In this document: positions 2,030 through 61,510 of the stretch, one piece after another
Layout: each line of letters starts with the position of its first letter
Position numbering within the stretch: position 1 is the stretch's first letter
NCBI RefSeq assembly: GCF_006345805.1
Contig: NC_043004.1
Location: 94,116,001 to 94,180,000 of the forward strand
Reading direction: 5' to 3'
Source: Octopus sinensis
Taxonomy: Eukaryota
DNA length: 64,000 bases
The notes under the pieces: generated by a model
Database searches by the model: none
Told to the model about the DNA's origin: nothing
The model's input: the letters and a program-made list of their open reading frames with translations, nothing else
Position numbers and translations under genes: made by a program

Positions 2030-2133
2030 TTTCCTTTACCGTTAAGGTTAGATCAACAAAAAATACTCCAACCGGCGTGTGACAAATATTGTTTAATGTA
2101 CAAGCTACTAATAGTTTCACATATTGCAGATAT
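2030..2133 (-). mobile_element. Penelope-like pLTR remnant carrying the 3' half of a hammerhead motif
   Basis: Minus strand reads GAAACTATTAGTAGC, identical to 54009-54023; AAAAAATACTCCAACCGG resembles AAAAAAGTACTCCATCTGG (reverse complement of the Penelope 3' end near 54075-54092). Confidence 0.5.
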
Positions 2134-2534
2134 GGGATCTTTTCGGTTTGAACGGCAGTTTTTTAAAATAATTTCCAAGTAACTAAACACTTCTAAACTT
2201 CGTACACTGGTAGAATGTGTTTATAAAACATCTTTTTCTCTTGGCTTCATTGAGAAAATTCTATAGTTTGTAAGATATTTGTTGTTTATTTTCTTCAATT
2301 TCTGCAATTTCAACCAATCACTGACGTCTATTGAGGTGAAAATATTCTGTGCCGCCTTATGAATATGTCCCTCGTTTAAGAAACAGATTGGGTTTATTTA
2401 TATTTCTGAAGAAAAAAAATACCCTTCCCCCCACCCCTAACCTTAAAGCAGATTGAAATACTAGGGTCATAATTATGGGTGACAATTTCATTGACACCGC
2501 TAGAAAAAACTGCCGTTCAAACCGAAAAGATCCC
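2134..2534. mobile_element. MITE, 401 bp, perfect 31-bp TIRs, 6-bp TSD
   Basis: TIR GGGATCTTTTCGGTTTGAACGGCAGTTTTTT at 2134-2164 and its reverse complement at 2504-2534; AGATAT on both flanks (2128-2133, 2535-2540). Confidence 0.92.
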
Positions 2535-2678
2535 AGATATTTTCTTGGCAAGTGTTAATAACACGCCTAGCGTCTCCAAGCAATTTTTAAGCTCTGTGCA
2601 CATGATGGTCTATACAAGTAACAAATCAGGACACCAGAACAAGAGAAATCGCGAGAGGAAGGTGAATACACACACAAA

Positions 2679-2863
2679 GGAGCACTCCGTCGGTTGCGAC
2701 GACGAGGGTCCCAGCTGATACGAGTCAACGGAACAGCTTGCTCATGAAATTAACGTGTAAGTGGCTGAGCACTCTACAAACACGTGTACCCTTAACGTAG
2801 TTCTCGGGGAGATTCAGCGTGACACAGTATGTGACAAGGCTGACCCTTTGAAATACAGGTACT
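2679..2863 (-). mobile_element. SINE family A, 3' portion
   Basis: Matches 10600-10780 (GAGCACTCCGTCGGTTGCGACGA...CCCTTTGAAATACAGGTAC). Confidence 0.85.
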
Positions 2864-2989
2864 ACTCATAAAATTTCCCAAATGTTAAGCTATGCTTGTT
2901 TTCTCTCCTGAGGACGTCTCGTGTATAGTTCTGCAATTTATATTTTCTATGAGGGTCACACTGAAGATTTGCAGATATTTGCGTAATGT

Positions 2990-3980
2990 AAATGGTGACA
3001 ACGAAACCTGGTATGTGACTTTGAGAAAGAGGGAAAAACCTCCTCGTCGAAACAAAACTCCGGAAGAAAACCAAAACTTTCAGATAGGGATCGTCGGACT
3101 CTTACGTGAATTGTTAGAAAGGATCACAAAAGTACAGCTCCCAAAATTACTGCAGGACTTAATGACAACCTCGCGAACACAGTTTTCACAAAAACTGTTC
3201 GCTGGGAGCTGCAAAAAGCCGGATTTCACGAGAGGGCTGCAATCAGAAAACCACTACTTTCAAAAACAACCGTTGCAAAGCGTTTAGAGTGGAGTAAAAA
3301 CCTACAGAATTGGTCCCTAGAGCAGTGGAAGAATGTTATTTTCTCGGACGAATGTTATTTTCTCGGAAGAATGTTGTTTTCTTTACCTTATTTCCGATCG
3401 TCGGCCGAGTATACGTGTGGAGACATTCAAAAGAAGCATTTGACCCAGACTGCCTTCTTCCAACTGTTAAACATGGAGGAGGAACTGTTACGATCTTGGG
3501 GCTACATCTTGGAAATCCGCCGGTCCAATGGTTTCCTTTCATGGCAGAATTAATAGTCAAGACTATTTAAGAATTTTATCTGATCAAAGTTATCCTATGA
3601 TTGCGGAACAGTTTCAGGAGGGAAACGCAATCTTTCAGGATGATAATGCACCAATTCACACAGCCAAATTTGTTACTGAATGGCACGAGGAACATTCTAG
3701 TGAAGATGAACACTTTATCTGGCCACCACAGTCCCCAGATCTCAATATTATTGAACATTTATGATGCATTTTAGAAAAATAAGTAAAGAGTCGATATCCT
3801 CCACCATCATCGCAACAAGAACTGAAAACTGTTATAGCAGAAGAATGGACAAAAATTCCTTTGGAAACAATTCAAACTTTGTACGAGTTCATACTTCATA
3901 GAATTCAAGTCGTAATTACTGCCAAAGGCCGTCCTACCGCATATTAAAATAAATTTGTTTGAAATTTTAAGGTGTTTCCA
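2990..3980 (+). mobile_element. Degenerate Tc1-family transposase (frameshifted, DD36E spacing)
   Basis: Motifs across frames: KPLLSK, WKNVIFSDE, PTVKHGGG, FQDDNAPIH, WPPQSPDLNIIE, EEWTKIP, AKGRPTAY-stop at about 3947. Confidence 0.92.
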
Positions 3981-58536: not shown

Positions 58537-59503
58537 TGTTCACTATAAAATTATTTTAGCATTTTCTATTCTGACTTGTTTTTTCATATTATATAGATAT
58601 ATATATATATATATATATATATATATATATATATATATGTATGTAAGTATGTATGTATATATGTATGTATATATGTATGCATACATGCACACACTTATAT
58701 GTACATACGTACAAACATGCACATGCGCATATATGTATATGGACGCAGGTATATCTGGGTGGCTCAGAAATTCGTGTTACAATGTTGTTCTGGTTTCATT
58801 CGCGCATCGTGACATCTTAAGTATGCACCTCTCACCATATCCTCAGGTCAAACTAAGCTTTCTACAATCATTTGGGTAAATGGAAACTGCAGGGAAGTTT
58901 ATAAAATCAATTATAACTAGAATTCAAAGACTCCATCTTCGTTAAACTGTGCCACGCTGATTCTTCTTGATAATTACGCTAAAAGTGAATAACCCATACA
59001 CTTGACATGATAATTCAATGAGCAGAGCGCGTATGTATGTATGTATGTATGTATGTATGTATGTATGTATGTATGTATGTATGTATGCATGCATGCATGT
59101 ATGTATGTATGTATGTATGTATGTATGTATGTATGTCATGCATGCATGTATGTATGTATGTATGTATGTATGTATGTATGTATGTATGCATGCATGTATG
59201 TATGTATGTATGTATGTATGTATGTATGTATGTATGTATGTATGCATGCATTCGCCGGAACGTAGAAATACTCTGATCGGTGTCCGAGGGAACAGTAATC
59301 CCTTCTAGGAATTGGATGGAGGGACTGGTCCTTGTCAAAGCTAACTTATTTTGTATAAAATAAAAAATAAAAAAAGAGACTCTCGTCATAGTCTCCAGGT
59401 AACATTCAAGAAACGATCAAAATTTTGAATGAAGATCTGTAAATGTAGCTCTTAATTTTAACAGAGAAGAATTAGAAATGCGAAAGGCTAACAAGGTCTA
59501 GAA

Positions 59504-59831
59504 CATAGGTTCTCAATGTGGGCGCTACCCCTACCCCCCACCCCGGTGGGCGTTAAGACAGTCCATGTGGGCGCTGGTGCCTAAGGGTGGGTAAGAAAAA
59601 AGGAGGCGTTGGGAGGAAGGCAGTGGATTGGGGAACGCTATGAATTTTTTATAATATTGTCATATTACTGTATGTAAGTTATATAATATTATATTAAATA
59701 TCAAATGATTCATAGTATATATAAATAAGTAAAATATAAAATATCAATACATAAAAATAGGGACGAGGGCGCTGGGGGTACCATGTGGCCATGAGTGGGG
59801 CAATGGCCTGAAATGTTTGTGAAATTCTAGA
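59504..59831. mobile_element. Degenerate hAT-like MITE
   Basis: CATAGGTTCTCAA start; 8-bp TSD-like GTCTAGAA / CTCTAGAA. Confidence 0.5.
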
Positions 59832-60332
59832 CTCTAGAATTTCGAAAATTTAAAAAAACTAGCAGTAATATACTTATAAACTTTTGTTCCGATTTTTTGT
59901 CATTGTTGGCAAAACTACAGAAATATATGCATACATATTGATTGAAGTACAAATAATTTTGTGTAGAGCACTTTTTCTCAATATGTATAGACGGCATTGT
60001 AGGACTACTATCTTTGAAATAAATGTATATTTTCAGTTATTGAAAGAACTTAAATGCATGAACGATGTAAGATTGTTTTATCTTCTGCTGATAACAAAGT
60101 TTCGTATAGTAAAGTATAAAAGTGGTGCATATTAACTTTGCTGAACAAGTGTGTGCATGCGTATGCACGCGTAGTTGCAGGCATCCGTGCAACTGCATAT
60201 ATGTGCGTGTGTGTGTGCGTGTGTATGTTTGTATGTATGTATATATGTATGTGTATATATATATATATGCATGCTTTTATCTACTCATATACCTATATAT
60301 ATATATATATATATATATATATATATATATAT

Positions 60333-60460
60333 AGGGCACTGATAGGGCACAGAAAGTGTGTCTATAGCCAGCTGGCGAAGGTGTCCTCCTGGGGCTACAA
60401 ATACAGTAGCATCTACCCTTGGGGTTAGCCATATTCAAATGGCAATATACGTCACGATAT
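60333..60460 (+). mobile_element. Fragment of the 353-bp retrozyme-like family in (TA)n
   Basis: GGGCACAGAAAGTGTG...GCCAGCTGG...CTCCTGGGGCTACAA...GGTTAGCCATATT..ATGGCAA matches 34092-34200. Confidence 0.8.
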
Positions 60461-61184
60461 ATATAGATATATATATATTATATATCGTGACGTATATTTG
60501 CCATATATATATATATATATATTATATATATATATATATATATATCACTCACACACATACACACACATATGTGTGTATAAATATATGTTTATATATATAT
60601 ATGTATGTATTTGCGTATATATATACATACAAATACATGTGCCCCAGCATGGCCACAGCTCATAAGCTGAAACTAGAATCAATCATATATATATATATAT
60701 ATATATATATATGCATACATAGACACACATGTGTGTGTTTGTGTATGTGCGCGCGCGTGTGTGTGCTAAAAGTGTAATGGCTGTTTAATATCCTTTCATT
60801 TAACAACTCCCCGCTGAGATAAATACCCAGACAGTTGCAAGGTAAAAGATAGCATGATAACACTCCGTCTTTCTGTCTGGACACTTAAAATTGAACTTAA
60901 TCTAGAATCTAGAAACACCTGTCTATCTATCTATCTATCTATCTATTTATCTATCTATCTATCTATCTATCTATCTATCTATCTATCTATCTATCTATCT
61001 ATCTATCTATCTATCACCTATATTTATATTCTATTATTCCTTTATTTGTTTCAGTCATTTGACTGCCGCCACGCTGGAGCACTGCAAAATCGTTTGAGTA
61101 ATTCTCGAGTTTTAGTGATGCACACACACAGATAAACAGATAGACAGAGACACATTCTCAGTTTTATATATATAGATTACTATT

Positions 61185-61510
61185 CGGTACTGTTACTGTA
61201 TTTCTCTCGCTCAGAGATTTAAAACATGTTTTTCTTGATCCGAGTTCAGCGACTGTGTTGCTTAAAGAATGTATAGTATTTGCGAGTGGTGATAACTTTC
61301 GTGACTAGCTGGTAATTGTCCCACGCTGAGGACGGATAACAATCAGAAACCTAGGTCTATGAGTATCACATAAGGCAAGAGATAGGAACGATGACCTCAC
61401 TTGCAAATGATATATATGGATGCAGAATGTGTATCATTAGCCAGCTGGAAAAGATGTTTTCTTGGAGCTAAAGCAACAGTAACATCGTCCTTTACAGGAC
61501 TACCACATTA
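61185..61510 (+). mobile_element. Diverged retrozyme-like monomer with HHR at 61320-61363
   Basis: CTGAGGA-CGGAT[AACA]ATCA-GAAA-CCTAGG-TC followed by GTATCAC, GATGACCTC..TTGCAAAT and GCCAGCTGG, as in the 33.7-kb unit. Confidence 0.7.

Follow-up and report, generated by a model that had tools for sequence, protein, structure and literature searches.

The 64,000-nt window of Octopus sinensis DNA analyzed here (assembly GCF_006345805.1, contig NC_043004.1, positions 94,116,001–94,180,000) was searched together with other loci of its own 2.72-Gb genome (L numbers) for minimal hammerhead ribozyme motifs. In the window, 13 motifs with full topology, 11 of them with an intact core, and three partial motifs were found, spread over 13 insertions and belonging to 10 families (A–J). 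A preliminary description of the window had proposed about 12 motifs from at least six families; all 15 places that it listed were shown to carry the described motif at the given base, and a full motif at 2955–3019 had been missed. The type-I minimal layout, with three helices, core positions 3–9, G12-A13-A14, A15.1–U16.1 and H17, fits the majority sequences of families A–J, and the motifs were shown to have a palindromic helix III and to be associated with Penelope-like elements (PLEs) and microsatellites, as proposed. Two window copies have broken cores, at 7297 (G12 to A) and at 10990 (U16.1 to A). The family majorities, built without the window copy, mend the breaks found in window copies, namely in helix I of family E, at G12 of B, at U16.1 of G and in one helix II pair of A.

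Four families (A, C, E, and F) are, as judged from sequence traced upstream to reverse transcriptase (RT) and/or GIY-YIG frames, 5′-truncated 3′ ends of PLEs. Family F (58250–58590, plus strand) corresponds to the truncated 3′ untranslated region (UTR) of a Neptune-type PLE, with a hammerhead at 58494–58536 (+) that has the core UUGAAAA (U3–A8). Copies of this family reach up to 1.2 kb further 5′, and a near-full open reading frame (ORF) was found in L132, where RT, a CX4CxxC linker and GIY-YIG (E=1.8e-5) are followed by a low-complexity UTR of ~900 nt ending in the U3–A8 motif. Family C is present as two minus-strand copies. The copy at 26009–26200 is the 3′ UTR end of a Neptune-type PLE and has a hammerhead at 26104–26141 with the same core as the family majority, CUGUCGA (U6); the other, from a second subfamily (57947–58117), has a hammerhead at 58023–58060 with the core CUGUGGA (U6). 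The U at position 6 of these two motifs had not been remarked on before. PLE coding sequence was found upstream in L033/L259 for the subfamily of the 26104 copy and in L232, L241, L243, L248, and L258 for the sister subfamily. The frames are partial in L232, L241, L243, L248, and L259, and L258 contains a 975-aa open frame with RVT_1 (E=2.7e-8) between two motif copies 4.3 kb apart.

The family E hammerhead (53971–54025, plus strand; core CUGAUGA, long helix II, helix III ACUAUUAGU) lies in the 3′ end of a PLE whose broken frame (53001–53795, plus strand) has a CxCX5C linker and part of GIY-YIG, is interrupted by stops and a frameshift, and is Hydra-clade-like by its linker motif. The linker and GIY-YIG frame is located directly upstream of the motif in the window and also in 6 of 14 other E loci; no RT part was seen upstream of E in the window, and Pfam gave no match for the E fragment. 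Family A is present as a single insertion (5387–5663, both strands) composed of a forward and a 5′-inverted copy, with hammerheads at 5535–5585 (+) and 5465–5515 (−) that have the core GUGAACA (G3–C8), an extra G and the helix III AAUAUU. A further copy (48641–48710, plus strand) has a ~9-nt deletion that takes part of helix II and G12. Upstream of A lies ~1.9 kb of low-complexity UTR, beyond which the walk came to where an endonuclease frame ends (L326, L327, and L257); in L329, both RT and endonuclease frames were found and the UTR is interrupted by a mariner copy. These fragments contain a YVDD RT motif and a CX3CxxC linker and show weak BLAST similarity to the C frame (E=1e-6 for RT; 0.003 for the other). 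The upstream walk also ruled out that A is a short interspersed nuclear element (SINE). The organization of an endonuclease-containing PLE, an RT with C-terminal GIY-YIG upstream, was thus found for F (L132) and C (L258), for E by the linker and endonuclease part, and for A by motifs and weak BLAST similarity (L329).

Three other observations concern these elements. In L134 (G000:C5:110513400-110523399), an F 3′ end is fused directly with an internal RT segment from its own PLE, followed by an inverted continuation, likely a double template switch. At 38106-38495 (+), the window contains an N-terminal piece of a further Neptune-type PLE, which shares 36% identity with the F frame (E=1e-17). 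Two 94%-identical copies of a 400-nt repeat lie at 46318-46721 and 54139-54534, the second between inverted family-E 3′-end pieces.

From its sequence organization, family D appears to be a non-coding tandem retrozyme with one type-I hammerhead per 352-nt unit. The window element (33669–34207, plus strand) contains ~1.5 units, with a 3′ hammerhead half at 33669–33689 and a full hammerhead at 33998–34042 (+; core CUGAUGA, helix II closed by C·A, helix III ACUGCAGU). Besides, a diverged D-subfamily copy (61312–61525, plus strand) has a hammerhead at 61320–61363 with an intact core, two mismatches in helix I and the helix III ACCUAGGU, and a D fragment without hammerhead was found at 60343–60460 (+). 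In L260, five 352-nt units are arranged head-to-tail, and permuted copies cross the unit junction. Families B and H are probably non-coding as well. The family B insertion (7016–7488, both strands) has a 5′ inversion, a ~490-nt unit in which no ORF was seen, and hammerheads at ~7163–7221 (−), with an intact CUGACGA, and 7297–7356 (+), with G12 changed to A. Partial tandems in which the 3′ end of B is joined to its own 5′ start were found in L108, L113, L126, and L129, and a full B multimer was not seen in the fetched loci. The family H hammerhead (2955–3019, plus strand) has the core CUGAAGA and an extended helix II; no ORF was seen in its ~560-nt unit, and a junction like that of B was seen by eye in L265 and L277. 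The pairs listed as 5465/5535 and 7168/7297 do carry the motifs, and each was shown to be a single insertion with a 5′ inversion. A miniature inverted-repeat transposable element (MITE) reading of these 5.4- and 7.0-kb palindromes was rejected, as other copies have unequal arms and many have a single arm. The proposed set of short non-coding elements therefore holds for D and probably for B and H, and does not hold for A, C, E, and F, which are truncated 3′ ends of coding PLEs.

The coding link is weaker for the remaining families. Family G (10990–11030, plus strand) is old and rare, with seven candidates in the genome. Family I, also old, is represented at 54687–54804 (−) by a complete hammerhead with a ~90-nt helix II region, which in the family majority closes with a 10-bp stem, and with the helix III ACAAUUGU; it had been described as a half motif at 54691. 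Family J (2035–2135, minus strand) is related to E and retains the 3′ half of the hammerhead only (2103–2125), the 5′ half being replaced by another repeat. Families I and J are probably PLE 3′ ends. Among the other presumed halves, those at 2105 and 33669 are indeed partial, and the one at 48643 is the family A copy with the deletion through G12.

The canonical CUGANGA core is present in families B, D, E, G, H, and I, and absent in A (G3–C8), F (U3–A8), and C (U6). Over all fetched loci, A showed G3 in 65 and C8 in 63 of 67 core matches, F showed U3 and A8 in 28 of 28, and the C-like group showed U6 in 58 of 75, with all four letters at position 7. Core-pattern counts for D were excluded, since the pattern also made 24 false matches in family-C loci. 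In an evenly spaced genome sample of 96 stretches of 10 kb (0.96 Mb), the A copies with a core had G3 in 4/5 and C8 in 5/5, and the C copies with a core had U6 in 7/7. Sister families that share the helix II of C have A6 or C4; one with the core CCGACGA (U4 to C) gave seven matches (L224:8606, L260:7116, L270 (−)) and has that helix II with a shorter loop. These counts point to G3–C8, U3–A8, and U6 as lineage-fixed core variants, and the three Watson-Crick versions of the 3–8 pair that had been noted (C3–G8, G3–C8, and U3–A8) were each confirmed to be fixed family-wide. Constraint on the core is visible between families and subfamilies. In D, comparison of subfamilies (L212, L065, and the copy at 61320) showed changes on both sides of helices I, II, and III that keep them paired. 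Helix III alone forms no stable monomer hairpin (0 to +6 kcal/mol; none for ACGU); a helix III self-duplex was predicted in 9/9 families tested, and it is strong in B, D, H, and F.

A strict hammerhead descriptor gave no match in the window, because the window copies are aged or, in several families, carry an additional nucleotide ahead of helix II. With a relaxed descriptor, 15 matches were obtained, compared to 1.9±1.4 in local shuffles and 3.3±1.4 in Markov shuffles (20 shuffles per kind), and with A6 required nine matches were left vs 0.6–0.75 in shuffles. Relaxed matches at 31820, 34341, 42331, 61427, and 40747 may be due to chance. In the 0.96-Mb sample, the same relaxed scan gave 62 matches vs 26 in reversed and 22/26 in shuffled sequence, and a stricter scan 17 vs 0 and 1–3. 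The motif frequency is thus above that of shuffled sequence both in the window and in the sample. Divided by class, the sample contained 12 motifs with C3–G8 and A6 (one in controls), eight with C3–G8 and U6 (0–1), eight with U3–A8 and A6 (3–4), and three with G3–C8 and A6 (0–2); the fourth pair, A3–U8 with A6, showed no excess in this sample (4 vs 2–5). The excess of ~37 per 0.96 Mb suggests that the genome holds on the order of 10^5 hammerhead motifs. The motif density of the window is ~5 times the sampled genome mean; the window is located on a 107-Mb contig, 13 Mb away from its end, and is rich in microsatellites (148 Tandem Repeats Finder rows) and short repeats. More hammerhead families were seen in the sample (L175:8747, L212:2542, L212:9694, L167:1958, L219:9037, L136, L143, L176, L225, and L227), including two further U3–A8 cores and helix III palindromes of 8–12 nt.

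The motifs were confirmed to be largely unannotated. Rfam gave no hammerhead match at gathering score in 17 sources (121.6 kb) and none at E ≤10 for 33940–34100, and no hammerhead was present among the 150 of 451 matches listed for the window. With regard to abundance, a first-look genome search, in which 40 candidates were scored per family except G, gave lower bounds of at least 2545 candidates for A, 2596 for B, 787 for C, 2802 for D, 1247 for E, 251 for F, 481 for H, 378 for I, and 88 for J, and 7 for G. Family A was found in seven of the sample stretches, C-like sequences in nine, B in two, and D and E in one each, and none of F to J was found in the 0.96-Mb sample. From their numbers of stretches, about 20,000 genome copies were calculated for A and about 25,000 for C-like elements. 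Cores with G3–C8 (~20,000 copies), U3–A8, U6 (~25,000), and C4 may each have spread in abundant PLE lineages, in addition to the canonical core, and A3–U8 shows no such excess.

The anatomy of the insertions was compared after removal of duplicates, in loci that were for the most part selected for their similarity to the window copy, a choice that inflates uniformity, and with the long 3′ class bounded by the reference length. The 3′ ends form two clusters, with 11 and 18 of 30 loci in A, 8 and 14 of 24 in B, 14 and 6 of 22 in D, and 11 and 7 of 18 in F; E has two clusters as well. Inversions of the 5′ part were found in A (11/30), B (13/24), D (8/22), F (3/18), and E (3/15). A microsatellite follows the end in 18/18 F and 22/23 C loci, (TA)n flanks were seen, and the hammerhead is located 50–240 nt before the fixed 3′ end. 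The truncation, inversions, optional tail, and microsatellite targets typical of PLEs were found across A, C, E, and F, with two 3′ ends in A, E, and F, and one end without inversions in C. An optional 3′ tail has been mapped to two internal RT start sites and termed unique to PLEs (PMC11167929), and truncation, partial tandems, and inversions are described for PLE insertions (PMC8557442). The presence of PLE-type tails and inversions on D and B therefore makes it likely that both are copied by PLE enzymes.

Taken together, it is highly probable that the motifs are minimal type-I hammerheads residing in PLE 3′ ends (A, C, E, F, and probably I and J) and in non-coding elements (D, and probably B and H) that likely rely on the PLE enzymes; they are predicted to cut only as dimers, in RNA from tandem sources. 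By analogy with published PLE work, the PLE protein would nick microsatellite DNA and prime at the nicked (TA)n site, and reverse transcription would begin at either of two internal RNA sites, 50–240 nt downstream of the hammerhead. Such an internal start just downstream of the motif would explain why nearly every insertion, even a short one, carries one motif. The palindromic helix III, which cannot close alone, may allow two motifs to pair with each other, and cleavage of the dimer would trim or circularize the source RNA. Minimal hammerheads have been reported to require a partner and to cut slowly, and PLE RNA to be read from tandem copies (PMC4209133; review PMC6765202). Solo inserted copies would then decay neutrally. 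Single genomic copies in the window are most likely inert leftovers, because they decay like their flanks and because inverted pairs would give transcripts in which a motif is accompanied by its complement.

Several results weigh against this reading, besides the selection of loci mentioned above. Cleavage and transcription of the motifs are putative here, and the motifs get no score from any Rfam hammerhead model. Inside a family, conservation of the core exceeds that of the flanks slightly or not at all (E 0.96/0.94, H 0.985/0.92, I 0.85/0.85), so the earlier expectation that a family would keep its core more than its flanks was borne out weakly or not at all; a weak excess is expected, as copies decay after insertion. 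The helix III duplex is weak in A (−0.2 kcal/mol) and C (−1.7 kcal/mol). Family C has one 3′ end (23/23) and no 5′ inversions (0/23). The RT and endonuclease fragments of A have no Pfam match at E 0.01, their PLE identity coming from motifs and weak BLAST similarity, and the coding link of J is one weak match (E=5.6e-5). Loci of ±1.5 kb showed no RT/GIY-YIG frame for G (7 loci), H (15), or I (15). Likewise, no PLE frame contiguous with D (25 loci and L260) or B (25 loci and three 10-kb stretches) was found, and no partner PLE for H in the fetched loci.

The main rival to dimer cleavage, which is compatible with a PLE origin and which we consider possible yet unlikely, is that the fold is kept as an RNA signal, for dimerization or for binding of the PLE protein near the RT starts, while the letters of the core drift. 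The lowered activity reported for A6C (k_obs below 0.1 per min; PMC3088659) fits this explanation, in that U6 is fixed across subfamilies only 73–85% alike though changes of A6 lower activity, and so do the sister families with A6 or C4 and the C·A pair closing helix II of D. Metazoan minimal hammerheads were also shown to cleave poorly in vitro (PMC4209133), and catalytic mutants did not reduce insertion in vitro, nor did Anolis reads end at the cut site (PMC11167929). Against drift of the core, three different forms of the 3–8 complementarity, a feature needed by the active fold alone, have been retained; each of the ten families preserves G5, pairing of G8/C8/A8, G12-A13-A14, and a non-G at 17; and a C3G/G8C change partly restores cleavage (PMC11167929). 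The core variants of A, F, and C are predicted to cut slower than the standard core. If dimers with G3–C8 or U6 barely cut although their lineages are among the most numerous, the PLE hammerhead could mainly be a dimerization or RT-positioning signal, and the tails of retrozyme D direct footprints of PLE enzymes on circular or multimeric RNA; we put this forward tentatively, as a minority view.

That all motif-bearing repeats are independent short non-coding elements, either retrozymes or SINE-like, is suggested by the shortness of the window copies (100–500 nt) and of many family copies, and by the lack of an ORF for D, B, and H in the fetched loci. Copies of A, C, E, and F have uneven 5′ ends and continue upstream into RT/GIY-YIG frames, which refutes it for these four families, and as an account of the whole population it is very improbable. 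Chance matches in AT-rich repetitive DNA would account for about 2–3 of the 15 relaxed window matches; the excess of 15 over 2–3 and of 62 over 22–26 refutes this for the listed motifs. Since in unrelated families the motif lies on the ORF strand at the same spot near the 3′ end, and the helices are compensated between subfamilies, chance has a negligible probability as the general explanation.

The octopus motifs resemble the minimal hammerheads described from PLEs in PMC4209133 in their short helix I, palindromic helix III, and many heterogeneous families per genome, in being mostly solo copies of truncated PLEs with opposite-strand pairs, and in the extra nucleotide between 9 and 10.1 (here in A, C, and I). 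From the same source, S. mansoni 4 shares the UUGAAAA core with family F, and the Acropora Neptune motif resembles family C, whereas D, with its C·A pair closing helix II, and I, with its ~90-nt helix II region, depart from the consensus given there. Its alignment S3 has G3–C8 or U6 in 0 of 56 rows and includes no cephalopod. The novelty suggested by the preliminary description was thus overstated, as that paper already gives minimal hammerheads in PLE ends, opposite-strand pairs, and U3–A8, and also the additional nucleotide and the multitude of heterogeneous families in one genome; U3–A8 is also known in natural hammerheads from PMC3088659. Compared to the non-LTR retrozymes of PMC7229834 and 10.64898/2026.07.22.740005, D is similar in having a unit within 170–400 nt and one type-I hammerhead per unit, and differs in being known here from DNA alone; the units of B and H are longer, at ~490 and ~560 nt. 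A PLE origin of retrozymes is proposed in both papers, whose main texts do not mention octopus, and D and B have PLE tails and 5′ inversions, whereas the word 'tail' does not occur in the main text of 10.64898/2026.07.22.740005. The PLE PAc Poseidon from Anolis (PMC11167929) is similar in having two internal RT starts that give an optional tail, with the hammerhead just upstream; tails are ~30–90 nt here vs 30–40 in PAc. G3–C8 was an engineered double mutant with partial activity in PAc, whereas in family A it is the natural state. With the PLE clades of PMC8557442, the octopus elements share the C-terminal GIY-YIG, (TA)n targets, partial tandems, and inversions; compared to Neptune, Nematis, and Hydra in that source, the linkers are CX4CxxC in C and F, CX3CxxC in A, and CxCX5C, the Hydra signature, in E, the clade names used here being based on linker motifs alone.

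Literature searches found no natural G3–C8, only the engineered pair, and no A6U hammerhead, and absence from print is not established for either. A collection of about 150,000 hammerhead variants was reportedly compiled by Lünse et al. in 2017 and may already list G3–C8 or U6. What is added here is that G3–C8 and U6 occur naturally as the core state of whole families linked to coding PLE lineages, and that a tandem retrozyme bears the marks of PLE insertion.

Apart from the hammerhead-bearing elements, the window contains a very abundant ~235-nt repeat with 184-nt tandem sub-repeats on both strands (9800-10240, 12936-13570, 24887-25121, 32860-33095, 36080-36947, 39430-39667, 43228-43402, and others), which resembles the common octopus SINE. 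A broken retrotransposon of the non-LTR type (lacking long terminal repeats) is located at 41536-43167 (−; RVT_1 E=9e-10, zf-RVT), with a second fragment at 17708-18463 (−). At 29358-29636 (+), 32552-32860 (−), and 55312-55845 (−), long open frames with an ordinary composition had no Pfam match and could be host exons; over six long window frames, Pfam gave nothing but one weak match.

The overall phenomenon has already been published, and the gain is incremental. For annotation, it means that short repeats which are PLE ends or retrozymes are easily filed as SINEs or MITEs and are invisible to Rfam. PLE hammerheads cut poorly in vitro, and one biochemical study found that insertion can do without them. 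With G3–C8, U3–A8, and U6 fixed in successful lineages beside canonical sisters, the genome provides matched natural constructs for the question whether cutting matters, and the PLE-type tails and inversions on D support, via insertion anatomy, the proposal that retrozymes are moved by PLE enzymes.

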